From contig ONYW01000004.1 in assembly GCA_900322215.1 (NCBI GenBank), positions 1,015 through 65,014 of the forward strand: 64,000 bases of DNA, given 5' to 3'. Shown piece after piece: positions 2,915-55,695 of this stretch. This stretch comes from an uncultured Eubacteriales bacterium (GTDB taxonomy: Bacteria; Bacillota; Clostridia; Christensenellales; CAG-917). Position 1 is the first letter of the stretch. The number at the start of each line of letters is the position of its first letter. The translations under genes and the position numbers were made by a program. The notes under the pieces are model-generated. The model was not told where the DNA came from, searched no databases, and saw nothing but the letters and a program-made list of their open reading frames with translations.

Positions 2915-3409
2915 TTATTCTATTTGATTCAAATCCATGCAATAAGCGCGTACGCTTTGTTCTTCGTCAGTGCAAATGCAGACGTGGTAGTCGTCAAAGA
3001 CGTCAAAGTGTTCAAAGTGCTTGTCGGTCGGAAGACTTTCGCGGATAGAGGCTATACCCTCGCCCGTGAATTTGACGTAGCTCTCTCTTTCCGTCCACTT
3101 TTCAAAGAACTCCTGCTCATCCTCGGCTTCTATAAACTTGAACTTTGCAAAGTCAATTTCGCGCACCTTTTCGATATCGACACCTATCGGCGAATAGGAT
3201 ATGCCGACGACGATGACGCCGTGCGAGTGCGAGAGGTTGAAATGCACCTCGTCCGTATCGAAGCGAGGTTTTTTGCCCTCCGCCCTTATGATTTGCACCT
3301 TCTCGGGCAGTTCGTTGCCGAGCGAGGTCATAATGTTTTTATAGTGTGAGTAGCAGTAGAGGACAAACTTGTCGCTGTCCACTTCTCCCTGCGCGAAAAA
3401 CAGTATCAT
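2915..3409 (-). CDS. 4-prime-phosphopantetheinyl transferase (Sfp-type, short)
   Basis: Motifs GKKPRF, FNLSHSHG, GVDIE and WTERESYVKFTG. The start overlaps the coaX stop (ATGA). Confidence 0.8.
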   Translation of the reverse strand: MILFFAQGEVDSDKFVLYCYSHYKNIMTSLGNELPEKVQIIRAEGKKPRFDTDEVHFNLSHSHGVIVVGISYSPIGVDIEKVREIDFAKFKFIEAEDEQEFFEKWTERESYVKFTGEGIASIRESLPTDKHFEHFDVFDDYHVCICTDEEQSVRAYCMDLNQIE

Positions 3410-4191
3410 AATCCTTTTGAGAGGTCGTAAACGTATTTGAGACCTTTGAGCGCGAGCGCGCGGTCTACAACGTCCAAAATGTCAGGCTCGGTGTTCTCGA
3501 CGAGTTCGGAAAGGCCGCCTGTCGCAACCACCTTTGCTCCCTTCATTTCGGGCAGTGCCTTATACTTTTCAAGCATATACTTAACAAGTCCGGTATAACC
3601 GTAGATTATACCGCTTTGCATACACGTCTTTGTGGAAGTGCCCACTATGCTTGCGGGCGGAGTGAGTTCTATTCTCGGGAGTTTCGCCGCCGTCGTGACG
3701 AGCGATTCGGTCGCGGTCTTTATGCCGGGCGCGATCGCTCCGCCGATGTATACTCCGTCTTTCGTCACAAGGTTGAAAGTCGTTGCGGAGCCGAAGTCCA
3801 CCACGATGACAGGCCCGCCGTAGAGGTGATATGCGGCAGCCGCCCCGACCATTCTGTCCGTGCCGAGTTCCGCAGGGTTGTCATATCTAAGGCTTATGCC
3901 GAGTTTCGTCTCGTGCGTGACGGTCAGCGGATTCTTGCCCGTGTAGAATCTGCACATGTGCTCTATCGTATAGTTGAGCGCAGGCGCCACCGACGACATA
4001 ACGCACGCCTCGACGTCCTCAAAGCTCACGCCCTTTTGACGGAGCAGGTCGTAGATCACCATGCCGTATTCGTCGGCAGTCTTGCTCGCCGCCGTCGACA
4101 CACGCCAGGACGCGACAAGTTCCTCTCCGTCAAACGCCCCGATCTTTATATTCGTATTTCCAATATCAAGTGTAAGTATCATGGTTTTCAA
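3406..4191 (-). CDS. coaX: Type III pantothenate kinase
   Basis: N-terminus LTLDIGNTNIKIGAFDG, an ASKHA fold pattern, and DRALALKGL near the C-terminus. Confidence 0.9.
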   Translation of the reverse strand: MKTMILTLDIGNTNIKIGAFDGEELVASWRVSTAASKTADEYGMVIYDLLRQKGVSFEDVEACVMSSVAPALNYTIEHMCRFYTGKNPLTVTHETKLGISLRYDNPAELGTDRMVGAAAAYHLYGGPVIVVDFGSATTFNLVTKDGVYIGGAIAPGIKTATESLVTTAAKLPRIELTPPASIVGTSTKTCMQSGIIYGYTGLVKYMLEKYKALPEMKGAKVVATGGLSELVENTEPDILDVVDRALALKGLKYVYDLSKGL

Positions 4192-4304
4192 CCACCTTGT
4201 TATTTCTTTGATGTTTCAAACAGCCGTGCGCCTTTCTCCTTTTCACGCACGCACCGCTCAATTTTTTATTATACCAAATCTTAAATGGATTATCAACAAA
4301 TATT

Positions 4305-4751
4305 TTAATTCGCAAATAGAATTGCAATAGTGCAGACAAACGAATATATATCAAATAGTAGCGTTGGCAAAAAGATGAGAGCGAGAGTCACGTCTTTTGT
4401 GAGAAAGCGGACAAAGAGAATATAAGAAAAGGCAAGCGCAAACGTCATCGCGACAAAAGCAAACAACAGGTTTTTGAGTGTGAAAAACGCTATGACAAAG
4501 AGAACGCAGGACGCGCCGAGAAGCGCAAAGAAGAGCATGGACGGAAAAATATGTTTGTGTTCGACAAGCCTAGTGATAGATAAAATCGAGGACAAATAAC
4601 TCACGACCACAAACCCGCTGAAAAATCCGCCTGATAGCACAAACGCAGGTTTTGCGAGCATATAATACCACTTAAAGTCCGTTTTGAAGAAATACGAGCA
4701 TAGCCCCGCGACGATGAGCGTCGCAAAGACCGCAACAACTAAGCCTATCAT
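4305..4751 (-). CDS. Multi-pass membrane protein, possibly TspO/MBR-like
   Basis: Start taken at the internal Met (MIGLVVAVF, cat at 4749-4751). About 5 hydrophobic helices. FKWYYMLAKPAF resembles the TspO WYxxLxKPxW motif, but the Trp content is low. Confidence 0.4.
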   Translation of the reverse strand: MIGLVVAVFATLIVAGLCSYFFKTDFKWYYMLAKPAFVLSGGFFSGFVVVSYLSSILSITRLVEHKHIFPSMLFFALLGASCVLFVIAFFTLKNLLFAFVAMTFALAFSYILFVRFLTKDVTLALIFLPTLLFDIYSFVCTIAILFAN

Positions 4752-4861
4752 TCGCTTTAAGTGTTCCACACAAAAATATATTATCAATTCGCATTTTGTA
4801 TCACCAAAATTTTGCGACTTGCGTATGGTAAAGTAGCAAACCAAAATATAGGAGGTACATA

Positions 4862-5056
4862 ATGAATTTCTTTACAAACGGAACTGGCAACGGCTGCGGC
4901 TGTGGCACTTGTGACATCATCTATCTCTTGCTGCTCTTGAACTGCATGGGCGGCATGAACTTCTGCGGCACAAACGGATGCGACATCATTTGGCTCATCC
5001 TCATTCTCAACTGCTTCTGCGGTGGCAACAACAACATCGGATGCGGTTGCAAATAA
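4862..5056 (+). CDS. Cys/Gly-rich small protein with an internal duplication (function unknown)
   Basis: GGAGG at 4851-4855, 6 nt before the ATG. 64 aa with 10 Cys and 13 Gly. Two similar units: GTCDIIYLLLLLNCMGG and NGCDIIWLILILNCFCGG. A plus-strand terminator lies at 5269-5297. Confidence 0.6.
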   Translation: MNFFTNGTGNGCGCGTCDIIYLLLLLNCMGGMNFCGTNGCDIIWLILILNCFCGGNNNIGCGCK

Positions 5057-5180
5057 AACGGCGTGATTGAGCGACCTGCTGTGTTATCGCGCCTTGTCTG
5101 TTCAACCGTGTACGCCAATGTACACTGGGTTGCCCATCCAAAGCGCAATGCCTTGCATCTCATCTCAATCACACCGTTTT
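5055..5180 (+). repeat. Copy 1 of a roughly 125-nt structured repeat family
   Basis: Shares the boxes GAGCGACCTGC..TGT and CCTTGCATCTCATCTCA with 22564-22690 and 55696-55819. Outer arms AAAACGGcGTGATTGAG / CTCAATCACaCCGTTTT pair with each other. Internal hairpin GTGTAC-gccaat-GTACAC. Confidence 0.75.
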
Positions 5181-5268
5181 ACAAAAAGCAATTAGCCACA
5201 AACAGTGCTTGATGGCACGCACTGTGTGCGGGAAGTTTATCAATCTGTCTACACTCGTAGAAGAACAA

Positions 5269-5297
5269 GGGCGATGCCACTCGGCACCGCCCTTTTT
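5269..5297 (+). terminator. Intrinsic terminator for the small-peptide transcript
   Basis: GGGCGATGCC-actc-GGCACCGCCC followed by TTTTT. Confidence 0.7.
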
Positions 5298-5326
5298 AAC
5301 TTACGTTTAACTTTTACATCAAACGC

Positions 5327-6475
5327 TTATCTTTCTCCATTATTATAATTTTCTATTAGCGCATTTAACATATCTGAATCAAAAACAATCTCACTGCCAT
5401 CTGTGTATTCAATGTGTATATAGTTAATCCCTATTTTTGAAATAGAACTGTTGTACCAATAATTCTGAGCTTTTGCCTCTTTTGCTTCTCCTGATGCTAT
5501 TGGACCCGTCATTTTGACTGGCCTAACTCCAGAACCTCTAACCTCACAATATACTTCGTCTCCTACCGCATTTTTAGCTGCAAATCCTACATGAAAGTAC
5601 TTAATTGTTTTAGAACTTTTATTCTTAATTCCCATAGTCACATCTACTCCGCCAACAGAATTTGGTTTGCTTCTCACAAGTTTAGTTATAGAGAGAATTG
5701 ACCTAACCTGTTGTCTAATTTGTTCTTTCACTGCCTTCTCTTGATATGATTTATAGAGTTGTCTTTCACTATCGCTAATGCTTTTGATGTATTGTCCATC
5801 ATATAAATTTAATCTAGTGCCAGAAGTGCTAGACGAATTGCTATATACTCTTATAAACTCAGTTTTGCCGTCTTTTAAACCTAAGTCTACGACCAATCCA
5901 TCACACACAATCAAAATTGTTTCTATACCGTTTTCTTTCCACCCATAAGAAGAATCATCAATTTTATCGAATCCGACTTTCTTCAAATTTGCTATTACAT
6001 CATTAAGTTGACTATCATTAATATCAACATGTTGTTGTATAAGCACTCTATTTTTCTCATCAACTGTATATGATGGATTAGAGCCACCGCTAATAACGAA
6101 CTTTTTTGTTGACGTGACTATGTTTCCATCTTTTGTTTGTGCATGAATTTTTAAAACGCCATTATATTTTGCCTCAACTTTATATGAGATTTTACCTTCT
6201 TCCTTTTTCCCTATTGTAATTTCTGCAATCTTCGGGTTGTCGCAAACTATCTCTATGTCTTTAGAATTATAATTTGCTGGCTGAATATTTATATAGCCCT
6301 CATACTCGTCTCCATACCAACCAAACAAACCATGAAAGCCAAGTTTTTCTTCTGAAAGCGAATCAAATTCCATGCTTGTAATCGGATCTCCATCACTAAA
6401 ATCACATGCGCACAATCCAATTAAACAGCTGACTATTATCAAAATACTAACAAATATTAAAACTAATTTCTTCAT
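5327..6475 (-). CDS. Hypothetical surface lipoprotein on an AT-rich segment
   Basis: Signal peptide plus a Cys-containing lipobox (IGLCAC). Visibly more AT-rich than the flanks. I recognise no family motif. Confidence 0.6.
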   Translation of the reverse strand: MKKLVLIFVSILIIVSCLIGLCACDFSDGDPITSMEFDSLSEEKLGFHGLFGWYGDEYEGYINIQPANYNSKDIEIVCDNPKIAEITIGKKEEGKISYKVEAKYNGVLKIHAQTKDGNIVTSTKKFVISGGSNPSYTVDEKNRVLIQQHVDINDSQLNDVIANLKKVGFDKIDDSSYGWKENGIETILIVCDGLVVDLGLKDGKTEFIRVYSNSSSTSGTRLNLYDGQYIKSISDSERQLYKSYQEKAVKEQIRQQVRSILSITKLVRSKPNSVGGVDVTMGIKNKSSKTIKYFHVGFAAKNAVGDEVYCEVRGSGVRPVKMTGPIASGEAKEAKAQNYWYNSSISKIGINYIHIEYTDGSEIVFDSDMLNALIENYNNGER

Positions 6476-9370: not shown

Positions 9371-9751
9371 TCACATGATGACTGTGCCGTCGTGGAAGCG
9401 CTCTTGAAAGGCGATTTGCGCTGTTACGTCGCTCTCCGTGTGTTTTGCGCCCGTGAACGAGGCAACCCACTTGCACTCGTTGTCGTCAAAGCGGTGTACG
9501 ACCGCGATTATCGTCGCTTCGCACTTTTGGACGGGAACGTCCAGGTCAAGCACGTACACGTCCTGCTCCTCTCCGTCTCCGCCGAGAAACCCCTCGATAT
9601 AGCCGTAGTTGATGGGATACAACACTCCGGGGTGCTTTGGATGCTCCGCGCCTATCGGTCTGTCCATGACGACTTCGACTTTTCTTCCTATGAGGGATTT
9701 ATATTCGGATTTTAGGTCTTCTGTGAGTGGTGTATACATTTTATTCTTCAA
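9371..9751 (-). CDS. Short inorganic-pyrophosphatase-family protein
   Basis: LYPINYGYIEGFLGGDGEEQDVYVL matches the family I PPase YPxNYGxIPxTxxxDGDPxDVxVL block. Only 126 aa. It overlaps the 3-prime end of scfB by 11 nt. Confidence 0.6.
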   Translation of the reverse strand: MKNKMYTPLTEDLKSEYKSLIGRKVEVVMDRPIGAEHPKHPGVLYPINYGYIEGFLGGDGEEQDVYVLDLDVPVQKCEATIIAVVHRFDDNECKWVASFTGAKHTESDVTAQIAFQERFHDGTVIM

Positions 9752-11123
9752 AACTTGCGCCCTGCTCGTCGACTCTGAGCATAATAGCGCACTCGATACG
9801 CTTTTTGAAGAGGTCGCAACCGTATGGATATACGCCGTTTATATCGCCCGTCGCGTTGTAGGCGTTCGCGGCGCACCCGCCCGAGCAATAGAGCCTTGCC
9901 CAGCATTCTTCGCACTCTTTTCTCGAATATGCGTTGCACTTTTTGAACTTGTCACGTATGTCCGTTCTCTTGACGCCGTTCCAAATGTCGCCCATGAGGT
10001 AGTCGGGGTTGCCGACAAATTGGTGGCAGGGGTAGAGTTCCCCGGTCGGCGTGACCGCCATATACTCGGTTCCGCTTCCGCACCCGGATATGCGTTTGTA
10101 GATGCAGGGACCGCCCTCGAGGTCGAGCATATAGTGATAGAAGGTGAACGGCTTGCCTGCTTTTCTCCTCTCTATCATCATATTCGCGAGTTTTTCGTAC
10201 TCTCCGAAGATGATTTGCTTGTCATTCTCGTCAAGCGCGTATTTGTCCGTCGGCGGACAGACGACAGGCTCCATGGAAAGTTCGTTGAATCCGAGGTCGA
10301 GCATCGTCTGAATATCGTTTGTAAAGTCGGGGTTGTTGTGCGTGAAAGTGCCGCGCATATAATACTTTTCGCCGTTTCTGGCTTTGACGAGTTTTTGAAA
10401 CTTCGGCACGATGATGTCAAAACTCCCGACTCCTCCCGCCGTCTTGCGGAAGTGATCGTTGACTTTCTTTCTTCCATCTAAGCTCAAAACTACGTTGTCC
10501 ATCTCGCGATTTGCAAAGTCGATGACGTCGTCATCGATGAGCATGCCGTTTGTCGTGAGCGTAAAACGGAAAAGTTTGTTATGCTCCTTTTCTATCGAGC
10601 GGGCATAGGCGACTATTTGCTTCACCACGTCAAAATTCATGAGCGGTTCGCCGCCAAAGAAGTCCACCTCGAGGTGATGCCTCGTCCCGCTGTTTTCGAC
10701 AAGAAAGTCTATTGCGCGCTTGCCGACTTCAAAGGACATAAGCGCACGCTCGCCGTGATATTTGCCTTGCGAAGCAAAACAATATTCGCAATTTAGGTTG
10801 CAGGTGTGCGCGACGTGCAAACATAGCGCTTTGACAACCGTGTTTCTCTTGGCTATTGCGTCCACGGACGGCTTGAACTTGTCCTCGGAGAAGAGTTTGC
10901 CCTCGCTTTTCAGTTCTTCCACGTCGGCTATGCAGTCAAAAACGTCCTGCTTTGTCAAATTGTCGTCCTTATACTTGGCGACAAGTTCGTCCGCTATCTC
11001 GCCCGGTGTCTTGTTTCCGTACAAAGAAATGACGTCATAGGCGACGTCGTCGACGGCGTGCACGGAGGCGCTTGCCGTGTCGAGCACGATATTGTATCCG
11101 TTAAGTTTGTATTGATGAATCAT
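9741..11123 (-). CDS. scfB: SCIFF radical-SAM maturase (SPASM-domain ranthipeptide synthase)
   Basis: CNLNCEYC radical-SAM cluster motif. Cys-rich C-terminal SPASM region (CGSGTEY...CHQF...CxxCWARLYCSGGC). Lies directly downstream of a SCIFF precursor. Confidence 0.9.
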   Translation of the reverse strand: MIHQYKLNGYNIVLDTASASVHAVDDVAYDVISLYGNKTPGEIADELVAKYKDDNLTKQDVFDCIADVEELKSEGKLFSEDKFKPSVDAIAKRNTVVKALCLHVAHTCNLNCEYCFASQGKYHGERALMSFEVGKRAIDFLVENSGTRHHLEVDFFGGEPLMNFDVVKQIVAYARSIEKEHNKLFRFTLTTNGMLIDDDVIDFANREMDNVVLSLDGRKKVNDHFRKTAGGVGSFDIIVPKFQKLVKARNGEKYYMRGTFTHNNPDFTNDIQTMLDLGFNELSMEPVVCPPTDKYALDENDKQIIFGEYEKLANMMIERRKAGKPFTFYHYMLDLEGGPCIYKRISGCGSGTEYMAVTPTGELYPCHQFVGNPDYLMGDIWNGVKRTDIRDKFKKCNAYSRKECEECWARLYCSGGCAANAYNATGDINGVYPYGCDLFKKRIECAIMLRVDEQGASFEE

Positions 11124-11189: not shown

Positions 11190-11336
11190 TTATTTTGATA
11201 CTTTCTCGCACTTTTGATTTGCTACGCCGCAAGAAGTCTTGCAAGCGGATTGGCAGGAAGTTTGGCATTCGCCGCAACCGCCGTTCTTTTTGCTCTCATC
11301 AAGGTCACGAGTTTTCAAGGTAACGATTCTTTTCAT
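11190..11336 (-). CDS. scfA: SCIFF (six-cysteines-in-forty-five) ranthipeptide precursor
   Basis: Not in the ORF track (48 aa). My translation is MKRIVTLKTRDLDESKKNGGCGECQTSCQSACKTSCGVANQKCEKVSK, which carries the family hallmark GGCGECQTSCQSACKTSC. Confidence 0.9.
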   Translation of the reverse strand: MKRIVTLKTRDLDESKKNGGCGECQTSCQSACKTSCGVANQKCEKVSK

Positions 11337-11421
11337 AGTGTTGCTCCTTAAAATCATATTTTATGTATTTATTATAAGAACAAAAGCCGTCTTTGTCAAC
11401 CTGAAAAGCGCAAAACTTTGT

Positions 11422-20232: not shown

Positions 20233-21060
20233 TTAGAATGCCGATTTCTCCGCTTCTTTGAAAGTTTTTGACAATTTGCTCTTGAGAGCGATTTCACAAA
20301 GGTCCGTCTCAGTCACGTTTTTTATGATTCTTCCTGTTTCGTCAACGATTTGAAAGGTCGTCTCTGCGTTTTTGCTCGTGTGGTGAAAGAAGCGCACAAG
20401 CGGTGTGTTTTCGGAGACTAAAACCGTCTTTCTTTCCACGCCTAAGTCATAGTTTTTAGAATGCACGGACAGCACGTGGAGATAGGTCTCGTCACGCATA
20501 CCGAAAGCCGCGCCGTAAAAAAGAAAGACCGCCATGATCCCGAGCGAAAAATTCACTTTGAAAAAGAATGATACGCAAAACCCCGCAAAGAGCAATACGC
20601 TTGCGATTATGCCGAGGATTTGAAGCACCTTTATGCCCCGCATCTTGTTTTTGCAAAGGGACAGCACGACGCGCGAGCCGTCTAACGGGTAGACAGGGAG
20701 CAAGTTGAAAAGCCCGAGCGAGAGATTAGCAAAAAGAAAAGGCCTCGTCACGCCGTATACGGCGGGAACGAGCCACCACACTCCAAACGTCATGAGCGCG
20801 ACGAGGAAGTTGGTCAAAGGTCCGGCAAGCCCTATGACTATGCCGGACGTCTTGTCAAAGTTTTCATCCATGCTCATCATTGCGCCGTACGGCATAAGCA
20901 CTATGCTTTTTACAACGTACCCGCGCAGTCTGCCAACGACGATATGCCCCGCCTCGTGGAGCACGAGCGCAGCAAAAACGAACAAAAAATTTATCCCCTG
21001 TCCAAGCAATACAAGTATGAGTATAAATGCAAAAAACAGGGGATTAACTTTGAGTTTCAT
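20233..21060 (-). CDS. spoIVFB: M50 site-2 protease, SpoIVFB-like
   Basis: Start at MKLKVNPLFF. HEAGH zinc motif, NLLPVYPLDG motif and a C-terminal CBS-like domain. The position after minDE matches the Bacillus gene order. Confidence 0.75.
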   Translation of the reverse strand: MKLKVNPLFFAFILILVLLGQGINFLFVFAALVLHEAGHIVVGRLRGYVVKSIVLMPYGAMMSMDENFDKTSGIVIGLAGPLTNFLVALMTFGVWWLVPAVYGVTRPFLFANLSLGLFNLLPVYPLDGSRVVLSLCKNKMRGIKVLQILGIIASVLLFAGFCVSFFFKVNFSLGIMAVFLFYGAAFGMRDETYLHVLSVHSKNYDLGVERKTVLVSENTPLVRFFHHTSKNAETTFQIVDETGRIIKNVTETDLCEIALKSKLSKTFKEAEKSAF

Positions 21061-21062
21061 CC

Positions 21063-21308
21063 TTATAAAATGCCGTTTGTGATATTTGCAAACATTTGGC
21101 TCATGGTCTCCACCGCACTCGTTGCACGGAACAAATTTGCAAACAAAAATCCGAGCGAAACAAAGACGCCTATGCAAACGGGTATGATCGCAAGGTCGAG
21201 GACGTCGAGTCCAAGAGACTTTCTCTTTTTCTTTTTGTCGACTTTCGATTCGACAAATTCGTTTTCGGAAACTAATACTTCAAGTTTTTTGTTTTCATCA
21301 TATTCCAT
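21063..21308 (-). CDS. Small membrane protein occupying the SpoIVFA position
   Basis: 81 aa with an acidic/basic N-terminus and one TM helix. Its stop lies 2 nt before the M50 protease start. No LytM domain. Confidence 0.5.
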   Translation of the reverse strand: MEYDENKKLEVLVSENEFVESKVDKKKKRKSLGLDVLDLAIIPVCIGVFVSLGFLFANLFRATSAVETMSQMFANITNGIL

Positions 21309-21369
21309 AACTCACCTCACCGTACAATGTATTGCGGGCATGTCAAAAATATGACTTGCAAAACGATTT

Positions 21370-21627
21370 TTATACGCTCTTTTTCAGCGTCGTGCAAAAA
21401 GTCTTTATTTTTGTGGCGTCGGCGGAAATTGAGATTTCGATTTTGCCGTTTTCGTTTTCTTTTATGTCAACCCGCGGTTTGTCCTCTATCTCGAAGTAGT
21501 CGCGGAGGACCGTCAAAATCTCCCCTTTGAACGAAGTCAAAAAGCCGTCGGAAAGCCCAAACTTGTCGTTTGTCAACATGTCACGGAGGCGCGCCTCTAC
21601 GATACTGTTTATTTTCATCGCCACCAC
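21370..21627 (-). CDS. minE: Cell division topological specificity factor MinE-like
   Basis: EARLRDML..FLTSFKGEILTVLRDYFEIED resembles the MinE KERLxxxL..xxLExxKxEILxVIxKYxEID block. An alternative start is at 21618. No clear N-terminal membrane-targeting helix. Confidence 0.65.
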   Translation of the reverse strand: MVAMKINSIVEARLRDMLTNDKFGLSDGFLTSFKGEILTVLRDYFEIEDKPRVDIKENENGKIEISISADATKIKTFCTTLKKSV

Positions 21628-22358
21628 CTTCTCTTTCTTTTGGGTTCAACCTCGAACGTGCCTTGAACGACGTTTTTTACAAGCGCTTCAAACGCTTTCC
21701 TCGACGGAGCGAAGTCGGGGGCTTTGCCGAGTTGTTGATAGACCGTTATCACGTCGTCGTCGGGAATCGCACCGACGAGCGTCGTATGAAGCAGTTTTGC
21801 GATTTCAAACGGAGAAAGCATCTCCCCTCGTGACACCAAGTCGTGGCGAAGCATATTGACGACGAGCGAAGTTGACTTTAAGTTGTAGGTGGAAAGTAGC
21901 CTGAACACCTTGTCCGCGTCGCGAATCGCGGAGGCTGACGGCGTCGTGACGACGATAGCCTCGCTTGCCGAGGACACCGCCCTGTGAAAGCCGTGTTCTA
22001 TGCCCGCGGGGCAGTCTATAAGCAAGAAGTCGAACATCCCCTGCATGCTGTCCACAACGCCCCTGAACGCCTGCGAAGACACGTCTTCGCTGTTCACCGA
22101 AGACGGCAAAATCCGCATAGACGACTCGCTGTCAAGCACGAGTGCCTGATACGGTCTGCACCGCCCTGCAAGCACGTCTCCTATGTCGTACACTATGCGC
22201 GACTCTACTCCCGTCACCACGTCCAAATTGTTGAGCCCCACGTCGCCGTCTATAAGTACGACCTTAAAGCCCTGCTTTGCAAGCGTCCTGCCAAGCGTCG
22301 CGGTGATGGTCGTCTTGCCAACCCCGCCCTTGCCCGATGTAATCACGATTTTTCTCAT
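21615..22358 (-). CDS. minD: Septum site-determining ATPase MinD
   Basis: Deviant Walker A: ITSGKGGVGKTTITATLG. ParA/MinD layout. Confidence 0.9.
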   Translation of the reverse strand: MRKIVITSGKGGVGKTTITATLGRTLAKQGFKVVLIDGDVGLNNLDVVTGVESRIVYDIGDVLAGRCRPYQALVLDSESSMRILPSSVNSEDVSSQAFRGVVDSMQGMFDFLLIDCPAGIEHGFHRAVSSASEAIVVTTPSASAIRDADKVFRLLSTYNLKSTSLVVNMLRHDLVSRGEMLSPFEIAKLLHTTLVGAIPDDDVITVYQQLGKAPDFAPSRKAFEALVKNVVQGTFEVEPKRKRRWWR

Positions 22359-22563
22359 AGCATTATTCTAAATAATGCACAACAAAAATTGATGACTGTT
22401 TTTGTCTATTTTAGGCTTTTTTGAGTATACACACTTCGTGTGTTTAATATTATTGATGGTTGAAATAGAAAAATAAAGAAATATCTTGATATATAAAACT
22501 CGTCTAAAACCGCTCAGGTTGGATGAAGAGCGCGGAAAAGCCCGCACTCAGGCAACATACTAT

Positions 22564-22690
22564 AAAACTGCGTGATTGAGATGAGATGCTAGGAAACAAA
22601 AAAAATCACACCGCCCAATGTACATAAACGTACATGACGGTGTGTATTTTTTGTAGTTGACAACGCAGGTCGCTCAATCACGACAGTTTT
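22564..22690 (-). repeat. Copy 2 of the roughly 125-nt structured repeat family
   Basis: Same boxes as 5055-5180, on the opposite strand. Outer arms AAAACTGtCGTGATTGAG / CTCAATCACGCAGTTTT. Internal ATGTAC-gtttat-GTACAT hairpin. Inner stem ACACACCG/CGGTGTG followed by T8. Confidence 0.75.
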
Positions 22691-23676
22691 ACGCCGAGCA
22701 TATCGGAGAGCAGGTTCTTATCGTCAAAGAACTTCGCACCGCCGATGGCGACTGCGTTTTCGATGTCGTCGAGCGGGGTAACAGGAAGTTCCAAAGCCTG
22801 CTCGATATAGTCGATGAGTCCCGGAATGTGGAGAGAACCGCCGCTTATGAAGATACCCTTGCGAAGGATCTCGGCAGAGAGTTCGGGCGGAGTCTGGTTG
22901 AGCACGGACATGATGACTTCGATTATGTCGTCAACGAGCGGAATAACCGCGTTGCGCATGCCCTCGGCCGTCACGAAGAGCGAACGAGGCGTGCCGTCCT
23001 TTCCGCCGCCGCTGACAGCATAACTGCCCTCGTCGTTGAGATAGAAGGAGAGCGCGGACTTTTTGAGTTTTTCCATCGTAAAGTCGCCGATTTTTATGCC
23101 GTAACCTTGGTAGAATTCGTCTATTATCGCATTGTTGAACGCGTCGCCCGCGATATTCACCGTGCAACCCGTTGCGATGCCGTGATTTGTGACTGCCGCA
23201 ATTTCCGTCTTTCCGCCGCCGATGTCCACGAACAGTCCGCCGACCGAGCCCGTGTAGGCAAGAAGGGAGAGCGGAGACTCAACGAGCGTGATTTCGCTCA
23301 TGCCCGCCCTAAGACAACACTTTTCAACCGCGCGCCTGTCCGAATTTGAAGAAGACGAGCAAATAGAAACGATAGCCTTGACTCTCGGTTTGATAAAAGT
23401 CTGCGGCAAAATACGCTTCAAAAAGTGTTCGAGGAGCATCGTTGCCATCTCTTCGTCGACGATTATGCCTTCCTTTATCGGAGAGATGATCTTCGCACCG
23501 CCGAGAGAGCCGTTCATAATGCTCTCCGCGCGGTAGCCCGCCTCTCGGATTTCGAGTTTGTTGCGGTTTTGAGTGGCAATAGCAATGGCAGGCTCGCGAA
23601 GCACAAGCCCTATGCCCTTTTGGTATATGGTGATAAATTTACTGCCGAGGTCGACAGAAAGTTCAATGAACGCCAT
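22678..23676 (-). CDS. mreB: Divergent MreB/Mbl-like actin homologue
   Basis: Start at MAFIELSVDLGS, which overlaps maf by 14 nt. Also REPAIAIA, ISPIKEGIIVDEEMATMLLEHF, FVDIGGGKTEIA and ISGGSLHIPGL. No mreC or mreD follows. Confidence 0.75.
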   Translation of the reverse strand: MAFIELSVDLGSKFITIYQKGIGLVLREPAIAIATQNRNKLEIREAGYRAESIMNGSLGGAKIISPIKEGIIVDEEMATMLLEHFLKRILPQTFIKPRVKAIVSICSSSSNSDRRAVEKCCLRAGMSEITLVESPLSLLAYTGSVGGLFVDIGGGKTEIAAVTNHGIATGCTVNIAGDAFNNAIIDEFYQGYGIKIGDFTMEKLKKSALSFYLNDEGSYAVSGGGKDGTPRSLFVTAEGMRNAVIPLVDDIIEVIMSVLNQTPPELSAEILRKGIFISGGSLHIPGLIDYIEQALELPVTPLDDIENAVAIGGAKFFDDKNLLSDMLGVKLS

Positions 23677-24238
23677 AATATACTCCGAATTTTTCAAGCA
23701 CTTGCGACAGTTTTTCTCTCGGGAGTCCGACGATGTTGGAATAACTGCCCTTGTACTCATCGACGACTTGGTCGTCTTGAATGCCGTATGCGCCGGCTTT
23801 GTCAAGAGGATTCTTTTCGTCCACGTACTTTATTATTTGCTCGTCGGAGAGTTTTTTTATCTTAACTCTTGATTTTTCGACAAAGGATTCGCTTCTTCCC
23901 TCGAAGTTGACGGTGACGCCCGTGTAGACGTCGTGCCACTCTCCGCGGAGTTCTTTGAGCATTTCGATAGCGCGCTCGCGCGTCAAAGGCTTGCTGAATC
24001 TCTTGTCGCCCATGATGACGACTGTATCGGCGGCAATGACGACGGCTTTTTCGTCGTTTATGCAATTCGCCTTTTCCTGAGACAGTTTTTTGACGAGTTT
24101 TTCAGGCGATCTTTCAAAGATTGTATTCTCGTTGAAATCAGGCGCTACGACTTCAAACTCCACGCCCATTTTGGAAAGGATTTCTTTCCGTCTCGGAGAA
24201 CTTGATGCAAGAATAAATTTTGGTGCTTCTTTTGTCAT
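23663..24238 (-). CDS. maf: Maf-like nucleoside triphosphate pyrophosphatase
   Basis: Start at MTKEAPKFILASSSPRRKEIL. AGAYGIQD motif. Confidence 0.85.
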   Translation of the reverse strand: MTKEAPKFILASSSPRRKEILSKMGVEFEVVAPDFNENTIFERSPEKLVKKLSQEKANCINDEKAVVIAADTVVIMGDKRFSKPLTRERAIEMLKELRGEWHDVYTGVTVNFEGRSESFVEKSRVKIKKLSDEQIIKYVDEKNPLDKAGAYGIQDDQVVDEYKGSYSNIVGLPREKLSQVLEKFGVYYGVH

Positions 24239-32197: not shown

Positions 32198-32411
32198 CGT
32201 TTTTCCTCCGACTTCTCGGGTGTTTCACAAATAGTCTTAATAATTTTTTGCAAAGTATGAATTTTTGCAGTCATTTTGTTGCCAAATTATTGTTTTTGTA
32301 TTAAAATTACTAAGCACATTGATTTATTACCGTGCGTGAACGCGTATACGCGACGGAGCGCATGGCAAAAATCATTCGACTATGACAAAATAAATCTTAT
32401 ACAGGTTTGGT

Positions 32412-35400
32412 ATGAACAAAAAGAAATTCTTAGTTTTAGCAATTTTGATGGTTGCTCTCATCGTTCTCTCCTCCGCGCTCTTCGTCGCGTGCAACAAGAA
32501 CGACGCACAAACTGACTCCGACACTCCGTCGGAGGAATCCGAAACCATCGAACCAACCGAAGGTCTGCTGATCGCAAACAGCGACTTCAAGGTTGTCAGC
32601 ACAGACACGGAATCTTATCCGCGCACCATCACAAGTTGGTCAGGCGCAAAGACCTACTCTTCAGGCTCCTACGAGTCAGGCGTTATTGCAGGTGCGATAA
32701 GCCTCGAAGAGGCGCTCTATGCAGCCAACAAATCCACTTGGAAAGATACGGACGATAAGGGCTTGTATGCAAAGCTTACCGCAGGCGGCAGATACGGCGA
32801 CGACGACAAGATCAAGCACGCCCTCATGATCTATATGCCGAAGGCGGACGAGTCGACAGACAGCGCAAAGTACGGTCCTACCGCATACGGCTACACTTCC
32901 GCATCCTTCACGATCGCAGCGCACGCCTACTACAAACTTTCCGTGGACGTCCTCACCTATGACATCGCGGGCGATTCTTCCAACTCTTCAAACGTTCCGG
33001 GCGCAAGGATTTACCTCTCGTCCGACACGTATGCGGTGTTTGACAAAATCGACACGAAGGGCGAATGGAAGACGTACGAACTCTTCATCGAAGGTTCGGC
33101 AAGCGCGTCATCTTCACTCACGCTCAACCTCTCCCTCGGCAACTACTCGAGCACGTACCGCGACGGCTTGACCACGGGTTATGCCTTCTTTGACAACGTC
33201 GTGCTTGAAAAACTCGACAACGCAACCGCGGCAAGCGACTACGCTGCGGCAGTTGAGAGAGAACTCAATGACAACACGTACGTTCAAACAAACACACTCA
33301 AAATGCCGAACGGACGCTTTGACTTTGGTACGACGACGCTCTCTTCGACCTCCGCACCGTCCAACTGGTCGGCTGTGACGGGCAACAAGTCGGAGGACGA
33401 TCCCGCTCCGACATCTCTCGGTTACAACGCCGTCATCGACGCAAGCAAATTCTCCGAAAAATACAACACTTATTCTTCGACGTACTATCTCAAAGCCGAC
33501 GCGGATTCTGACGCTACAAGTTATGTTCCCGCAAAAGAACTCTCCGCAATAGAGACTCTCATCGGTACGCTTCCCGCAAACTCGATCGGCACGAACGTCT
33601 TTATGCTCTCTCAACAACTTATGACTGCTTCCGGTATCAGATCGTCAAAGCAAATCACCATTGAGAGAAACAAAGTTTATGCCATCTCCGCAAACGTCTT
33701 CACCTACGGTGTACACGGCGCAGGCGCATCCCTCGTTCTCACAGGCGCGGACGGCAAGGATATCACGATCAAGGGTATCTCCGCCAACGTCTCCGACAAC
33801 GCGCTCATCGGCTCTACGTCTATCAGTGCGGACGACGGCTACGTCATCGACTCCAACGTCCCGGGTGCTTCCACAATGGGTTGGAAGACCTACACCTTCT
33901 ACGTGATCGGCGACGACTACAAAGATTACAACTACAACGTGGCGATTTGGCTCGGCACTGACGGCACGAGCAAGAACACGGCTGTTTCCTACAAGAGCTA
34001 TTCAAGCGGATCCGGTTCTTCCAACTCCACGACTTACACGGCAAACGGCACGTTTGCAAACGGCTGGGTGTTCGTCGACAGCGTCTCCCTTGCTGAAATC
34101 GCGGAAAGCGATATTCCTGCGGCAACTGACGGCGTCGAATATGCAGGCGCGGATCAAATCCTCGACCTCACGGCGGCAGGCAAGTCCGACTATGTCGGCA
34201 TTTGCGTAGACCTCTCGACAGAGAATATCTTTAGCAACGCGGGCAACGGCAACGACCTCACTATCGGCAACGCGGGCACGGGCACTCAAATCGAGGGCAA
34301 CGGCACGACGCAAGCGGGCGTTCCGAACGGCTGGAAATCCAACTTTGACGTGACAAGTTCTTCATCCCCTGTCATCTCGGGCGGCATCGTCACGGACGGT
34401 CTTGTCCAAATCGATACGGAAGACAGCTTCACGCAAAGTTCAGGCAAAGGCACCTACCCCGGTATGCCATACGACATCGAAACGAAGACGGCATATATGA
34501 TGCACGCTTCAAAAGACGCATACTACGAAGTCGAAACCGCTCCGTTTGAAATCTCGGCAAACGGTTTCTATCGTCTCAGCCTCTGGGTGAAGACGGTTGA
34601 CGTCAAGTCTACGTCAGGCGTCTACGTCTACCTCCTCGACGAGGAAGGCACAACCGTTTCGAGTTTCACCGCTGTCAACACAAAGGATTCAAACGAATAC
34701 ACTTCCGACTGGCGCGAACTCACTTTCGTCATCCGCGGAAGCAAAGAAGCGGCTGAAAACTTCCACTTGAAGTTCACGCTCGGCACGGGCGACCGCTGGA
34801 CGGCAAACACTCTCACAAGCGGTGCGGCATTCGTGTCCAACATGAGCCTTACTTCAATAAATTACAAGACGTTCTCAGGCACGACGACGGGCACGTACGT
34901 CAAGTCGATCGACAGGACCTCCTCTTCGACCTACACGTTCACGAACGGCAGTTTTGACGAGTACAAACTCGACGACGACAAGCTCGATCCGACAAAGGCT
35001 CTCAAAGATCAAAGCGTTCTTGCAAATCCGACGAGTTGGACGATAAGCGACGATACGCTCAAGCCGAATTCTTCCGATTCAAAACTCGTAGCGGGCGTCT
35101 TCGCTCTTGAAAACCAAGACAGAAACCTCTACTTCAACCATAGCGCACAAACGAGCGCGGCATTCTCACTCGTTTCCGCAGGCGACTTCGACGCATTCTA
35201 CGGCGACGAATCCGCAGACACTTATCTCTCAAGCGCAAACCTTGACACGATAGGCGGCCCGAACGTTCTTGCCATCGCAAGCAACGACTCGGCGGAAAAA
35301 TATGCAGTCGGTTATGCTTCGTCCAAGTTCACCCTCTCCTCAAACGGCATCTACTCAGTCAGCGTGTTCGTCAAAGGTATGGGCGCTGAAAAGGCGAGCA

Positions 35401-36725
35401 TCTACCTCTCCGGCGAAGCGGCAACTTCTGTCGAAAGCGGTATGTTCACAATTGGAAATCCGTCTTCCGACTGGACAAAATACACCTTCTTCGTCAAAGT
35501 CGGTCCGACAAGCGTTTCACTCAGCCTCAACCTCTGGCTCGGCTATGACAACAAACTCGTCGGCCTCGACAGTGCGGACGACGCAAAATCCGCAGGCGCA
35601 GTCTTCTTTGACAACATCATCAAGAAGTCCGTTTCCGAAAGCGACTTTGCCGCTGCAGAGGAAGCAATAGAAGCAGGCGACACAAAGACCAAGGCTATCT
35701 CCTTTGTCACAGACAGTTTCGACTCCTTGTCCGACACGGTTGAATCGAGAGCACAACTCTCCTCCGCAAACGGCTGGAGCGGTGCGGCAGGAACGGATCA
35801 AACCTCTTCCAACACGAAGTCGGGCGTCATCTATGCCGACTCCAACTTCTACTCGGTGAACGCTGTCGACGGCACGGACTATGTCGGAATCCTCGGCAAG
35901 GCGTACGTCATCGACGACATCACCCTCACCCCTGAAGAGGCTGAAGGCAAGACGGAAGAAGAACAACTCGCTTTGAGAGAAGAAAAACTCCTTGCTCTCA
36001 AAAAGGCGAATTGGCTCCCTGTCTCTTCCCTTACGGCGCACAGCGGAAAGAACCTCCTCGTCATCAACAACATGGAGAAATCCGCTTACACCTACACAAG
36101 CAACACGCGTACGCTTGATGCGACGAGTTTCTACAAGGTCAGCGTTTGGGCAAAGACGTTCGGCATGAACGACGACGCGGACTGCGGCGCGTATATCGAA
36201 CTCTATCTCGGCTCCGCAAACGAAACGGACAACCCGCTCGTCTTCAAAGCACAAGCGCAAGCGGAGTGGACGGAATATACGTTCTTTGTCAAGACTCTCT
36301 CAAAGAGCGTCACAAGTGTGACCGTAAAACTCGGTCTCGGTTCGGTCGTCAAGACGGACGACGCGACGACAGGTCTCACATCCGGCTATGCGTTCTTCGA
36401 TGACGTGACGCTTGAAAAGACGACGGAAGCCGAATACGAAGCGGCAAAAGAATCCGCATCGGCAACAGTCCTCGCTCGCGAAGTCAAAGAGGCGGAGGAA
36501 GAAGAGACCCCCGACACCCCGGACGATACGACGCCTGAAAAGAAATTCAACCTTGAATATCTCTGGTGGATGATTCCGACGATTATACTTGCCGTTCTCA
36601 TCATCATCGTTGTGATCGTGTTCCTCTTCAAGAAGATAAGAAAGCCACACAAGAAAGAGGCTTCAAACTCTTCCAAAGAGACGCTCGCAAAGAAGCGTTC
36701 AAGATATGACGACAACAAGGAATAA
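32412..36725 (+). CDS. 1437-aa envelope protein with five CBM4/9-like (jelly-roll) repeats, an N-terminal lipoprotein signal and a C-terminal TM anchor
   Basis: Lipobox LFVAC-NK. Five modules each open with YYKLSVDVLTYD / VYAISANVFTYG / FYRLSLWVKTVD / IYSVSVFVKGMG / FYKVSVWAKTFG. Each has a central W(K/T)xY(T/E)FF and closes with YAFFDNVVLEKL / WVFVDSVSLAEI / AAFVSNMSLTSI / AVFFDNIIKKSV / YAFFDDVTLEKT. C-terminus WWMIPTIILAVLIIIVVIVFLFKKIRK. The ORF itself is solid; the function call is weak. Confidence 0.6.
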   Translation: MNKKKFLVLAILMVALIVLSSALFVACNKNDAQTDSDTPSEESETIEPTEGLLIANSDFKVVSTDTESYPRTITSWSGAKTYSSGSYESGVIAGAISLEEALYAANKSTWKDTDDKGLYAKLTAGGRYGDDDKIKHALMIYMPKADESTDSAKYGPTAYGYTSASFTIAAHAYYKLSVDVLTYDIAGDSSNSSNVPGARIYLSSDTYAVFDKIDTKGEWKTYELFIEGSASASSSLTLNLSLGNYSSTYRDGLTTGYAFFDNVVLEKLDNATAASDYAAAVERELNDNTYVQTNTLKMPNGRFDFGTTTLSSTSAPSNWSAVTGNKSEDDPAPTSLGYNAVIDASKFSEKYNTYSSTYYLKADADSDATSYVPAKELSAIETLIGTLPANSIGTNVFMLSQQLMTASGIRSSKQITIERNKVYAISANVFTYGVHGAGASLVLTGADGKDITIKGISANVSDNALIGSTSISADDGYVIDSNVPGASTMGWKTYTFYVIGDDYKDYNYNVAIWLGTDGTSKNTAVSYKSYSSGSGSSNSTTYTANGTFANGWVFVDSVSLAEIAESDIPAATDGVEYAGADQILDLTAAGKSDYVGICVDLSTENIFSNAGNGNDLTIGNAGTGTQIEGNGTTQAGVPNGWKSNFDVTSSSSPVISGGIVTDGLVQIDTEDSFTQSSGKGTYPGMPYDIETKTAYMMHASKDAYYEVETAPFEISANGFYRLSLWVKTVDVKSTSGVYVYLLDEEGTTVSSFTAVNTKDSNEYTSDWRELTFVIRGSKEAAENFHLKFTLGTGDRWTANTLTSGAAFVSNMSLTSINYKTFSGTTTGTYVKSIDRTSSSTYTFTNGSFDEYKLDDDKLDPTKALKDQSVLANPTSWTISDDTLKPNSSDSKLVAGVFALENQDRNLYFNHSAQTSAAFSLVSAGDFDAFYGDESADTYLSSANLDTIGGPNVLAIASNDSAEKYAVGYASSKFTLSSNGIYSVSVFVKGMGAEKASIYLSGEAATSVESGMFTIGNPSSDWTKYTFFVKVGPTSVSLSLNLWLGYDNKLVGLDSADDAKSAGAVFFDNIIKKSVSESDFAAAEEAIEAGDTKTKAISFVTDSFDSLSDTVESRAQLSSANGWSGAAGTDQTSSNTKSGVIYADSNFYSVNAVDGTDYVGILGKAYVIDDITLTPEEAEGKTEEEQLALREEKLLALKKANWLPVSSLTAHSGKNLLVINNMEKSAYTYTSNTRTLDATSFYKVSVWAKTFGMNDDADCGAYIELYLGSANETDNPLVFKAQAQAEWTEYTFFVKTLSKSVTSVTVKLGLGSVVKTDDATTGLTSGYAFFDDVTLEKTTEAEYEAAKESASATVLAREVKEAEEEETPDTPDDTTPEKKFNLEYLWWMIPTIILAVLIIIVVIVFLFKKIRKPHKKEASNSSKETLAKKRSRYDDNKE

Positions 36726-36773: not shown

Positions 36774-36888
36774 TACACTTTGCGGAGCCATATACACCCC
36801 TGCGTATTGATTATTACAGCACAAATGCCGATGATATGCAAGTCTTTTATCTTATGAATATAACGCGAATATTCTCATACAATTTTGT

Positions 36889-42744: not shown

Positions 42745-42891
42745 AACGTGACAATTATACAATATGTCGAAAAAATCGTCAACTTTTTGACAGGCATATT
42801 GCCGAGATTAAAAATTTTTTGAAAGAAATCCGACACTTGTGTATAAACCCCGAGCGTTGCGGCAATAATTCAGGCAAATCGGAGGTACTAC

Positions 42892-43557
42892 ATGAACAAA
42901 TTCACTCTTGCACTAAAACGCTTTGGCGGGTTTTTGAAGCGCAACGCTTTCTATCTTCTCATCATACTCTGCATAGCCTCGATCGCGACGGTTATCGCAC
43001 TCGCAGTCACACGAAACGCGAATACTGCGTCGGAGGATCTGAGCGTAATAAACACCGAGCCGAACGAGCAAAATCCAAACGAGCAAGCAAACGCGGGCGA
43101 ACAGCAGCCTACTGAAAAAGAGCCCGAACCGGTCGTAAAAACTCTCACGTTTATTAAGCCTACAAACGGCGAAATTCTCAGAGAATATTCCGACACAGTA
43201 CTCGTATGGTCCAGCACATTGAAGCAATATTCGACTCACCTCGGCACGGACTTCACGTCGACGGACGGCAACGTCTTTGCTTCGGCGGACGGCGCGGTCA
43301 AAGAGGTTGGCTACAACGTACTTGACGGCAACTATATCACCCTCACGCACGGCGACGGCTACGTCACGAAATATATGAGTTTAGAGACTCTCCCGACGCT
43401 CAAAGTCGGCGCGCAAGTCAAGCAAGGCGAACTCATCGGCAAGATGTCGACGACTCAAGGAAGCGAATCGAAAGACGGCAACCACCTGCACTTTGAAATG
43501 TACAAAAACAACGTACAAATCAACCCGCTCGACGTATTTATACTCGAAGAAAAATAA
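42892..43557 (+). CDS. M23-family (LytM-type) peptidase with an N-terminal TM anchor
   Basis: HLGTDF and GNHLHFEM zinc-ligand motifs. Confidence 0.85.
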   Translation: MNKFTLALKRFGGFLKRNAFYLLIILCIASIATVIALAVTRNANTASEDLSVINTEPNEQNPNEQANAGEQQPTEKEPEPVVKTLTFIKPTNGEILREYSDTVLVWSSTLKQYSTHLGTDFTSTDGNVFASADGAVKEVGYNVLDGNYITLTHGDGYVTKYMSLETLPTLKVGAQVKQGELIGKMSTTQGSESKDGNHLHFEMYKNNVQINPLDVFILEEK

Positions 43558-43619: not shown

Positions 43620-43918
43620 TGATATCCGCTTGCGCGGATGAGATTTTGCTTTCGCAAGATGATATCCAAACTCCGTTTGGGTTGTGGAAAAATTTTGTTT
43701 TCGTCCACACTCATCTATCAAACACACGAAGTGTGCAGATGATATCTTGCTTTCGCAAGACGATATCCAAACTTCGTTTGGATTGCGGAGAAATTTTATT
43801 TTTTTATACTTCGACTATCAAACACACGAAGTGTGCGCTTGTCATATTTGCCTTGTTCAAATTGAAAAGCATTTTATCTTCTGCCTGCACTCATCTATCA
43901 TACACGCGAAGCGTGTTA
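43620..43918. repeat. Degenerate tandem repeat (about 100, 100 and 80 nt) built from small hairpins
   Basis: The 20-mer TATCAAACACACGAAGTGTG occurs at 43716-43735 and 43816-43835, exactly 100 nt apart, with a variant at 43896-43916. CTTGCtttcGCAAGA and ATCCAAACtyCGTTTGGrT each occur twice. Confidence 0.8.
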
Positions 43919-46508: not shown

Positions 46509-46674
46509 TTTAGCCTCCGAAATTAGTTTGCACATTCCTGCGATTTTTAGTCAAAAAAGCGCAAATTTGCAAGGAGAGGACAACTTCTTTGCAATATTAT
46601 TGCAAAAATGCGATATGTCGTTGAAAATGCGCGCCCTTTATGCTAAAATGTTAAAAAGCATTCAGAGGTGTACT

Positions 46675-55612: not shown

Positions 55613-55695
55613 TTTATGCCTCTATATGCTTTATATACACTTATTATAATATGATAGCGCAAAGAAATGCAAACAAAAAATAATCGCATGATTCT

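Follow-up and report, generated by a model that had tools for sequence, protein, structure and literature searches.

A tiny Cys/Gly/Asn-rich protein from a large, strongly transcribed family in gut Clostridia whose conserved promoter looks sporulation-like

Contig ONYW01000004.1 of an uncultured Eubacteriales bacterium (assembly GCA_900322215.1; Christensenellales, CAG-917) carries, within the stretch of 64,000 nucleotides (nt) analysed here and called the window throughout, an open reading frame (ORF) at 4862-5056 on the forward strand that encodes a protein of 64 residues, among them 13 Gly, 10 Cys and 10 Asn. What is this protein, and what might it be made for? An earlier reading of the letters by a model (hereafter the sequence-only reading) had described it as an internally duplicated, Cys/Gly-rich peptide with strong translation signals. 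We find that the ORF is a genuine, conserved and transcribed gene. It is a representative of a large, unnamed and highly expressed family of gut Clostridia whose members share a conserved sporulation-type promoter, and a structural role in the spore envelope may tentatively be proposed for it.

The translation quoted in the sequence-only reading proved identical to our re-translation of the ORF, and its counts of Cys and Gly were reproduced. Homologues were assembled as proteins P0001-P0048 and loci L001-L110. A word-indexed search of 5.8 billion proteins, a set from which the window's own product is absent, returned four close relatives; an exhaustive hidden Markov model (HMM) search of 1.84 billion representatives gave seven matches, and the subsequent profile search 48 clusters. 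The closest homologues differ in length by multiples of 3 nt only, which keeps the frame, and the pairwise ratio of non-synonymous to synonymous substitution rates (dN/dS) among frame-preserving homologues was 0.03-0.2 for those pairs in which dS was unsaturated. The gene is present as a single copy in the window, and likewise in every locus examined. Purifying selection and in-frame indels, together with RNA in metatranscriptomes (see below), bear out the earlier description of a stand-alone small gene. The expression signals named in the same reading are also in place: GGAGG precedes the ATG at good spacing, as it does in nearly all homologous loci, and the gene has its own terminator, a hairpin followed by a T run (Table 1). 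An Rfam scan of positions 4000-6000 gave nothing but sub-threshold noise at this terminator.

The internal duplication was confirmed. Of the 20 residues in each unit (14-33 and 37-56), 11 are shared, and a local alignment of the N-terminal with the C-terminal half of the protein scored 74, a value reached by none of 2000 shuffles (29.9 ± 6.4). At the third codon position the units are identical in only 8 of 20 cases, which is no better than chance; the duplication is thus an ancient one that selection has maintained at the level of the protein. Each unit contains an aliphatic core bracketed by cysteines, C17-X10-C28 in the first and C40-X10-C51 in the second.

How far does this build extend? 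The window protein belongs to a family without a name, whose members are tiny (58-96 residues) Cys/Gly/Asn-rich proteins of Clostridia. The size and spread of this family, the misleading name that some members carry at NCBI and its very high transcription in the gut are points that go beyond the sequence-only reading. By their N-termini, the proteins fall into three subfamilies, namely MNFF/MNGFF...CGCK (the clade of the window), MSFFGN... and MSDLAATNCGC.... When one genome per GTDB species was scanned by pattern, the MSDLAAT type appeared in at least 204 species, most of them Lachnospiraceae, with carriers that include Agathobacter, Roseburia, Blautia, Mediterraneibacter, Faecalicatena contorta, Brotaphodocola catenula and strain M18-1. 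The type of the window was detected in nine Clostridia metagenome-assembled genomes (MAGs) from rumen or rabbit gut, and one member of its clade carries the NCBI label Christensenellales.

Exactly two hydrophobic runs were found in 121 of 123 distinct family proteins. Most of the runs measure 8 residues (186 of 244) and a further 33 measure 9, and in 250 of 268 cores a Cys stands no more than three residues away on both sides, CX10C being the modal spacing. The remaining parts vary in length, the N-terminal tail from 9 to 44, the linker from 12 to 36 and the C-terminal tail from 2 to 28 residues. Median contents are 17% for Cys, 21% for Gly, 0 for Lys plus Arg and 3 for Asp plus Glu, and the proteins have no signal peptide; the window protein has one Lys, at its C-terminus. 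A classical two-pass membrane protein was considered and rejected, as it would need spans of about 18 or more residues with positive flanks, whereas the family-wide mode of the cores is 8 residues and the median of Lys plus Arg is zero; the earlier statement that the cores are too short for ordinary transmembrane helices thus holds for the family as a whole. AlphaFold predictions for two subfamily alignments place a helix of 12-15 residues over each core at low confidence (predicted local distance difference test, pLDDT, 52 and 47), weakly suggesting that the cores form a short helical hairpin. In the window protein, such a structure could be stapled by two bridges, C17 to C28 and C40 to C51.

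Searches for a characterised family were largely blank. At E ≤ 10, the window protein matched no NCBIfam model and, in Pfam, only TisB_toxin at a non-significant E of 2.9 (8.9 bits against a cut-off of 25). At E ≤ 0.1, no Pfam or NCBIfam model matched any of 47 family members except for one stray at E 0.08, and a PDB sequence search with the peptide and the same 47 members gave no meaningful match. The failure of the sequence-only reading to assign a family is thereby reproduced across the 47 members; its comparison with the YjcZ/tiny-TM proteins did not turn into membership, those models being matched neither by the window protein nor by the other members. Two members, P0007 and P0061, bear the NCBI product name "chorion class high-cysteine HCB protein 13". 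We reject this name as an automatic label and a compositional artefact, as no Pfam chorion family was matched by the 47 members. Nothing bacterial turned up in the literature under this name or for the family itself, and the only paper found with the name concerns Bombyx.

Is the gene expressed in the gut? In a bovine-gut (rumen) metatranscriptome (X22), a 424-nt contig with a word depth of 28.7 covers 4864-5058, continues through a variant of the element in the 3' untranslated region (3'UTR) to about 5264 and enters a variant of the terminator hairpin. Depth is 0 past 5300, and both the TspO-like gene and the downstream lipoprotein gene have a depth of 0. For comparison, the organism's own operons for ribosomal proteins and EF-G stood at 56-121 in this sample, and the EF-Tu gene (58402-59607) at about 120 for the most part but higher, up to about 340-500, in a segment at the 5' end. 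Measured against these translation operons, the small mRNA is therefore abundant. At a homologous locus of strain M18-1 (L098), depth rose to about 3400-6000 in the mouse-gut run X32, compared to 2-10 for the aspartate aminotransferase gene and about 100 for the truA region, and the DNA-like run X26 showed a flat depth across this locus. A short segment of L098 upstream of the homologue (2750-2787) had a 40-fold excess depth in a DNA-like run and was flanked by many different sequences, which marks it as a repeat present in multiple copies in this mouse-gut Lachnospiraceae genome or in the community.

What drives this transcription? Alignment of the upstream regions revealed a conserved block in every lineage of the family. 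For the MSDLAAT branch, statistics cover 78 distinct upstream regions, mostly from Lachnospiraceae, with the consensus (A/C)AC(A)(C)-N~15-CATAnnAT(A/G), in which the AC block lies 16-17 nt upstream. An exact CATA is located 37-45 nt ahead of the ATG in 77 of the 78 regions, and the A and the T of the following nnAT(A/G) occur in 66 and 77 of them, respectively; the spacer between the -35 and -10 blocks is unconserved. Exact CATAnnnTA sites were found in 43 regions (shuffles: mean 6.7, maximum 13), and all 43 have AC 16-17 nt upstream, compared to 0.7 in shuffles. None of the 78 regions has a G at the G position of the sigma-A element TTGACA, and the invariant CA of the -10 block falls on a position for which sigma-A has no requirement. 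Sigma-E and sigma-K share a -10 element (CATATAAT-like) and are distinguished at -35, which has AC for sigma-K and ATA for sigma-E (PMC3789822; PMC517825). The sigma-K type was taken here as AC (TCACA-like) at -35 and CATAnnnTA or CATATAAT at -10, with 14-17 nt between them. By its sequence, the promoter of the MSDLAAT branch looks like one of the sigma-K type. At L098, mouse-gut RNA contigs have their first bases 7-14 nt past the predicted -10 (2959-2967), at positions 2974 and 2981, and end at the terminator near 3373. By analogy to this locus, transcription of the window gene is predicted to start near 4836; the X22 contig on the gene starts at 4864.

The clade of the window keeps this layout with two fixed changes; its pattern reads TCAC(A/C) or (G/T)AACAC, N16-17, CGTAnnnT(A/G), then GTAGGAG..., and the CGTA block is present upstream of every member, TspO-less loci included. 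The window gene has TCACC-N16-CGTATGGTA, with one mismatch to each sigma-K element, including the normally invariant A. The sole exception within the MSDLAAT/Lachnospiraceae set, L083, also has CGTA, and the CATA and CGTA forms are therefore one mutational step apart. Neither the window nor 155 kb of clade loci yielded another gene with the clade's CGTA promoter, and a search for the Lachnospiraceae motif in 538 kb returned 68 family genes and five others, none of them annotatable. Sites of the form (A/C)AC-N14-16-CATAnnAT(A/G) were also seen on small ORFs a few kb from the family gene in L016 (about 9040, plus strand), L044 (minus strand, motif at 2496) and L099 (about 4336, plus strand). These ORFs, of about 55 (LIIDGNAVYEVD..CME) and 104 residues, matched nothing in Pfam and may belong to one regulon with the family gene. 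A further observation concerns the predicted 5' end of the mRNA, which in the clade of the window (e.g. L011 5950-5965, L014, L024) often forms a GGA-GNRA-UCC mini-hairpin with GCGA, GAAA or GCAA loops that may act as a 5' stabiliser; in the window itself it is absent or different (GTAGCAAACC).

On balance, and at a confidence somewhat short of even, we propose that the gene encodes a sigma-K-type, mother-cell-made, Cys-cross-linking structural micro-protein of the spore envelope. The suggestion of a Cys-cross-linked spore or envelope protein in the sequence-only reading thus gains real, if indirect, support from a sigma-K-type promoter that is conserved across the family. The scheme that follows is inferred as regards the identity of the sigma factor, when the gene is switched on, where in the spore the product resides and how it cross-links. 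RNA polymerase with a sigma factor of the sigma-K type would start about 25 nt ahead of the ATG and produce a short monocistronic mRNA, predicted at about 460 nt in the window and about 400 nt in L098, which would accumulate highly with its strong ribosome-binding site, large 3' hairpin and terminator. The product, almost uncharged and without a signal peptide, would stay where the coat is built; a signal peptide would be unneeded because the coat is built in the mother-cell cytoplasm. Its two aliphatic cores of 8-9 residues, clamped by Cys (CX10C twice), might pack as a short helical hairpin that self-associates or sits in the outer forespore membrane or the inner coat. The Gly/Cys-rich tails and the loop would provide ten thiols for intermolecular disulfide (or metal) bridges under oxidising conditions, and bridging would yield an insoluble hydrophobic mesh once the spore of the anaerobe meets such conditions. 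The variable Gly/Cys arms of the family look like cross-linking spacers around invariant, Cys-clamped aliphatic rods. A structural protein would also fit the finding that no adjacent modifying enzyme, protease, transporter, immunity or partner gene is conserved in more than 100 loci.

Several points weigh against a spore role. The promoter spacer seemed at first to contain a SpoIIID box, but shuffled sequences had it about as often, and the predicted structures reach a pLDDT of no more than 47-52. The main source of uncertainty is whether the host, which may sporulate, does so. Curated sporulation HMMs run on the window proteins all remained below cut-off, and one predictor calls most, not all, Christensenellales MAGs non-sporulating (PMC12536801). 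Other features of the window hint that it may sporulate. A 221-residue protein with a transmembrane segment and an M23 domain (42892-43557) aligned end to end with the SpoIIQ model at E 3e-21, below the curated cut-off. Its gene is transcribed in X22 (depth about 10) and preceded by GTATA-N15-GGCAATAAT. Motifs of the form GTATA-N15-GGnnAnAnT, which we take to be sigma-F-like, occur twice in the window against 0.32 expected, at 42841-42869 and 32344-32372, in each case 23-40 nt ahead of a gene start. The second precedes the gene of a 1437-residue lipoprotein-like protein without a Pfam domain (32412-36725) and is doubtful, as an RNA contig starts upstream of the predicted start. In C. difficile, spoIIQ is sigma-F dependent. 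On the minus strand, positions 20233-23760 hold mreB, a hairpin repeat, minD, minE, an ORF for an 81-residue membrane protein and the gene of a 275-residue M50 peptidase with HEAGH; in Bacillus this place is taken by spoIVFA/spoIVFB, the peptidase gene standing where spoIVFB does, and no NCBIfam model matched the peptidase. Two side observations may be added. The SpoIIQ-like gene is followed, in the intergenic region, by two 71-nt direct repeats that are 86% identical (43631-43802). At 36860-36891, CATACAAT contains a textbook sigma-E/K -10 only 5 nt ahead of the assumed ATG of a SpoVB-like gene (36889-38466); either the start codon of this gene lies further downstream, or the match is a coincidence.

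Could the protein be made during growth instead? Two weak points of the spore proposal, the CGTA variant and the high RNA level beside growth genes, both favour a vegetative or envelope-stress-induced membrane micro-protein, the main rival explanation and one that we place on the unlikely side. Here, the Cys-clamped cores would form a short re-entrant or thin-membrane hairpin, and the surface Cys clusters would bind metal or buffer redox stress. Transcription would depend on a promoter of the extracytoplasmic function (ECF) type (AAC-N17-CGTA) or a sigma-A-like one, possibly in coordination with the divergent TspO-like gene. ECF sigma promoters, such as those of sigma-W, -X and -M in B. subtilis, have (G)AAC at -35 and CGT(A/C) at -10, about 16-17 nt apart. 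The clade of the window has a G (CGTA) where sigma-K/E promoters have an almost invariant A (CATA), and most of its members have AAC 17 nt upstream (AAC-N17-CGTA in L003, L011-L017, L024 and L108-L110), which also fits the ECF pattern. The window and its nearest relatives, in contrast, have CAC at -35, and at positions 8-9 of the -10 element all of them keep the T(A/G) of sigma-K/E promoters, for which ECF promoters have no need; the larger Lachnospiraceae branch has CATA in all regions but one. That the clade motif stands before no other gene in 155 kb of clade DNA likewise speaks against this explanation. Formally, a weak sigma-A promoter (GTAACA-N17-TAnnAT) could be read into the sigma-K-like motif as well. 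The window mRNA of the rumen sample amounts to a quarter to half of the ribosomal-protein operons of the same organism, and expression in vegetative cells is therefore easier to reconcile with this level than expression in a sporulating minority. The two hydrophobic helices predicted by AlphaFold would suit a membrane protein, whereas cores fixed at 8-9 residues and the virtual lack of Lys/Arg for the positive-inside rule would not.

The TspO-like neighbour bears on the same question. It lies divergently about 110 bp from the peptide gene in most of the window's clade (15 loci, tblastn), the pairing is kept even where the outer flanks are inverted or replaced, and a promoter-like site of the TspO gene found by scanning, GTGATA-18-TATATT (4804-4775), overlaps the -35 region of the peptide gene. 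The adjacency is lost in L024-L026 (GlyRS-peptide-ThrRS) and L109-L110, which retain the peptide promoter, and is absent outside the clade. A functional partnership was downgraded on these grounds. Because the TspO-less loci keep the same promoter, we read the pairing as ancestral synteny (GlyRS-TspO-peptide-PanK), perhaps with promoter interplay, and regard the TspO-like gene as context and not as a proven partner. The protein itself only just matched its Pfam model, with 28.4 bits (cut-off 24), and whereas canonical TspO is rich in Trp, it contains just one.

That the peptide is instead the precursor of a ribosomally synthesised and post-translationally modified peptide (RiPP) or a bacteriocin, with its Cys processed by an enzyme encoded elsewhere, appears very unlikely. 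Such an enzyme might be a cyclodehydratase or the SCIFF-type radical-SAM protein encoded 4.7 kb away. This radical-SAM gene is present at 9741-11123 and has, as already noted in the sequence-only reading, a substrate of its own, a putative SCIFF-like peptide at 11190-11357; its linkage to the peptide gene is not conserved. The high Cys content, the very high transcript levels, which are common for bacteriocin precursors, and the short, strongly conserved N-termini of the subfamilies (MNFFTNG, MSDLAATNC) followed by a more variable remainder would all suit a precursor. The conserved N-terminus, however, comprises only 7-9 residues without a double-glycine or other known leader motif, no Pfam or NCBIfam model of a ranthipeptide, lanthipeptide or TOMM precursor was matched, and what is conserved in the protein is its two hydrophobic cores and not a leader. 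An adjacent modifying enzyme is missing in the window, as had been stated before, and since neither a maturase nor a protease, transporter or immunity gene is conserved nearby across more than 100 loci from different genera, the earlier idea of a precursor served in trans finds no support. Finally, a type I toxin-like or selfish small hydrophobic peptide under antisense or 3'UTR RNA control, as might be suggested by small size, hydrophobicity, a strong ribosome-binding site, the long structured repeat in the 3'UTR and the weak TisB_toxin match, is highly improbable, given that this match is not significant, that the protein has two cores and not a single transmembrane helix, that the gene is single-copy, syntenic across family-level divergence, under strong purifying selection and very highly expressed in vivo, and that the 3' hairpin is a mobile repeat found elsewhere in the window and absent from loci such as L001.

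Table 1 Features at the peptide locus of the window
Feature	Position	Strand	Detail	Basis
Coding sequence of the 64-residue Cys/Gly/Asn-rich protein	4862..5056	+		ORF and translation, homologues, dN/dS, RNA contig
Shine-Dalgarno sequence GGAGG	4851..4855	+	6 nt ahead of the ATG	sequence
Predicted promoter	4800..4830	+	-35 TCACC (AC at 4803-4804), 17-nt spacer, -10 CGTATGGTA (4822-4830)	clade conservation
Intrinsic terminator, end of monocistronic mRNA	5267..5297	+	G+C-rich hairpin 5267-5294, then T run	sequence and scan
Hairpin repeat in the 3'UTR, about 130 nt, near-perfect	5054..5181	.	one of three copies	inverted repeat 5054-5071 / 5164-5181
TspO/MBR-like membrane protein, 148 residues	4305..4751	-	divergent neighbour	Pfam PF03073, E 1.5e-6

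The repeat copy that the sequence-only reading had placed in the 3'UTR of the gene was confirmed. Alignment identified three copies in the window, at 5054-5181 (minus orientation), 22563-22690 (plus) and 55695-55820 (plus), with conserved ends (TAAAAC.GCGTGATTGAGATGAGATGC.AGG ... GCAGGTCGCTCAATCACG.C.GTTTTA); the third copy carries matching changes in both arms. Folding z-scores were -6.6 (plus strand) and -10.8 (minus strand) for the copy behind the peptide gene and ranged from -4.7 to -10.8 over all copies, and the element had no match in Rfam. In X22, it lies inside the transcript and differs between strains, with several contigs over its core, and in one strain this site downstream of the peptide gene is occupied by another insert, of 135 nt. 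Since homologous loci, L001 for example, do not have the element, it resembles a structured repeat that is mobile or similar to a repetitive extragenic palindrome (REP). Another repeat family of the window (D1) comprises six copies of a 240-nt unit at 52778-53692, with start-to-start distances of 69-237 nt, within the gene of a 708-residue protein (52661-54787).

In the window, the peptide gene is flanked by the gene of the TspO-like membrane protein and a lipoprotein-like ORF. Between lineages, the neighbours vary and include TspO, GlyRS, ThrRS, NFACT, GGDEF, a methyltransferase, FeoB and others; in Lachnospiraceae they are unrelated from genus to genus. Another Cys-rich small ORF of the window (46200-46535, minus strand) encodes 111 residues with two C-rich modules, in a pattern unrelated to that of the peptide.

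Why would such a family matter? Lachnospiraceae and Christensenellales are dominant, health-associated lineages of the gut, and spores mediate their transmission from host to host. To our knowledge, the coat composition of their spores is almost unknown, because the coat proteins of Bacillus and C. difficile are poorly conserved. A family that occurs in hundreds of species would be an obvious candidate for a core structural element, or for a marker of sporulation in metatranscriptomes; this one has a conserved promoter of the late-sporulation type and some of the highest in vivo transcript levels at its loci. If the gene is vegetative, it would be among the most abundant unannotated transcripts of these bacteria. 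The family also illustrates how small, Lys/Arg-free proteins of low complexity slip past annotation and shotgun proteomics.

Which known systems does the family resemble? Like SCIFF/ranthipeptide precursors, the window protein is a short Cys-rich Clostridia peptide, but those have an adjacent dedicated radical-SAM maturase and no hydrophobic cores, whereas this family has no conserved enzyme neighbour. The YjcZ/tiny-TM proteins of Bacilli (TIGR01732, Pfam YjcZ-like), to which the sequence-only reading had pointed, are encoded by stand-alone, sporulation-associated genes. They are likewise very small, rich in Gly and free of a signal peptide, and their aliphatic core is short; they differ in having one hydrophobic segment within fewer than 50 residues and in not being Cys-rich, as opposed to two cores in 58-96 residues. 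SpoVM and CmpA of B. subtilis are mother-cell micro-proteins without a signal peptide that associate with the forespore surface. SpoVM, unlike the family described here, is a single amphipathic helix without cysteines, depends on sigma-E and shows no sequence relation.

Among the Cys-rich proteins of spores, CotY, CotZ and ExsY of Bacillus and CdeC and CdeM of C. difficile are made late in the mother cell under sigma-K, and their high Cys content is thought to cross-link the outermost spore layers. The window family shares the high Cys content, and late sigma-K expression is what we propose for it. PMC6101409 names cysteine-rich proteins of the C. difficile exosporium in its title. In contrast to the family, CotY/CotZ/ExsY and CdeC/CdeM are several-fold larger, soluble or self-assembling, lack the aliphatic-core build and are unrelated in sequence. 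Twin CX9C (CHCH) proteins have two short helices that are each bracketed by a Cys pair at a spacing of about ten residues, a build that the family (CX10C) may share, but they are soluble eukaryotic mitochondrial proteins with amphipathic, not all-aliphatic, helices and are not homologous.

Fungal hydrophobins and the chaplins of Streptomyces are small, hydrophobic, Cys-containing proteins that cover spores and render them water-repellent. They are possible functional analogues of the window family, from which they differ in being secreted by signal peptides and in having a defined eight-Cys pattern or a chaplin domain; there is no homology. A wider version of the spore proposal, which we regard as distinctly unlikely in this full form, would make the family an unrecognised major spore-surface component of gut anaerobes (Lachnospiraceae, Christensenellales) and a bacterial counterpart of hydrophobins and chorion, that is, a Cys-stapled aliphatic hairpin whose thiols the anaerobic mother cell keeps reduced and which, on meeting oxygen, becomes cross-linked to form a hydrophobic shell. 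Such a component would have escaped proteomics because it offers no tryptic sites. In the Hc proteins of the silkmoth chorion, Gly/Cys arms with CGCG-type repeats flank a hydrophobic centre, and the product is a disulfide-hardened shell. These proteins form an insect eggshell family, and the resemblance is one of composition, not of homology. The chorion name, wrong as a statement of descent, may thus still be a fitting analogy, with Gly/Cys arms around a hydrophobic centre and a shell hardened by disulfides.

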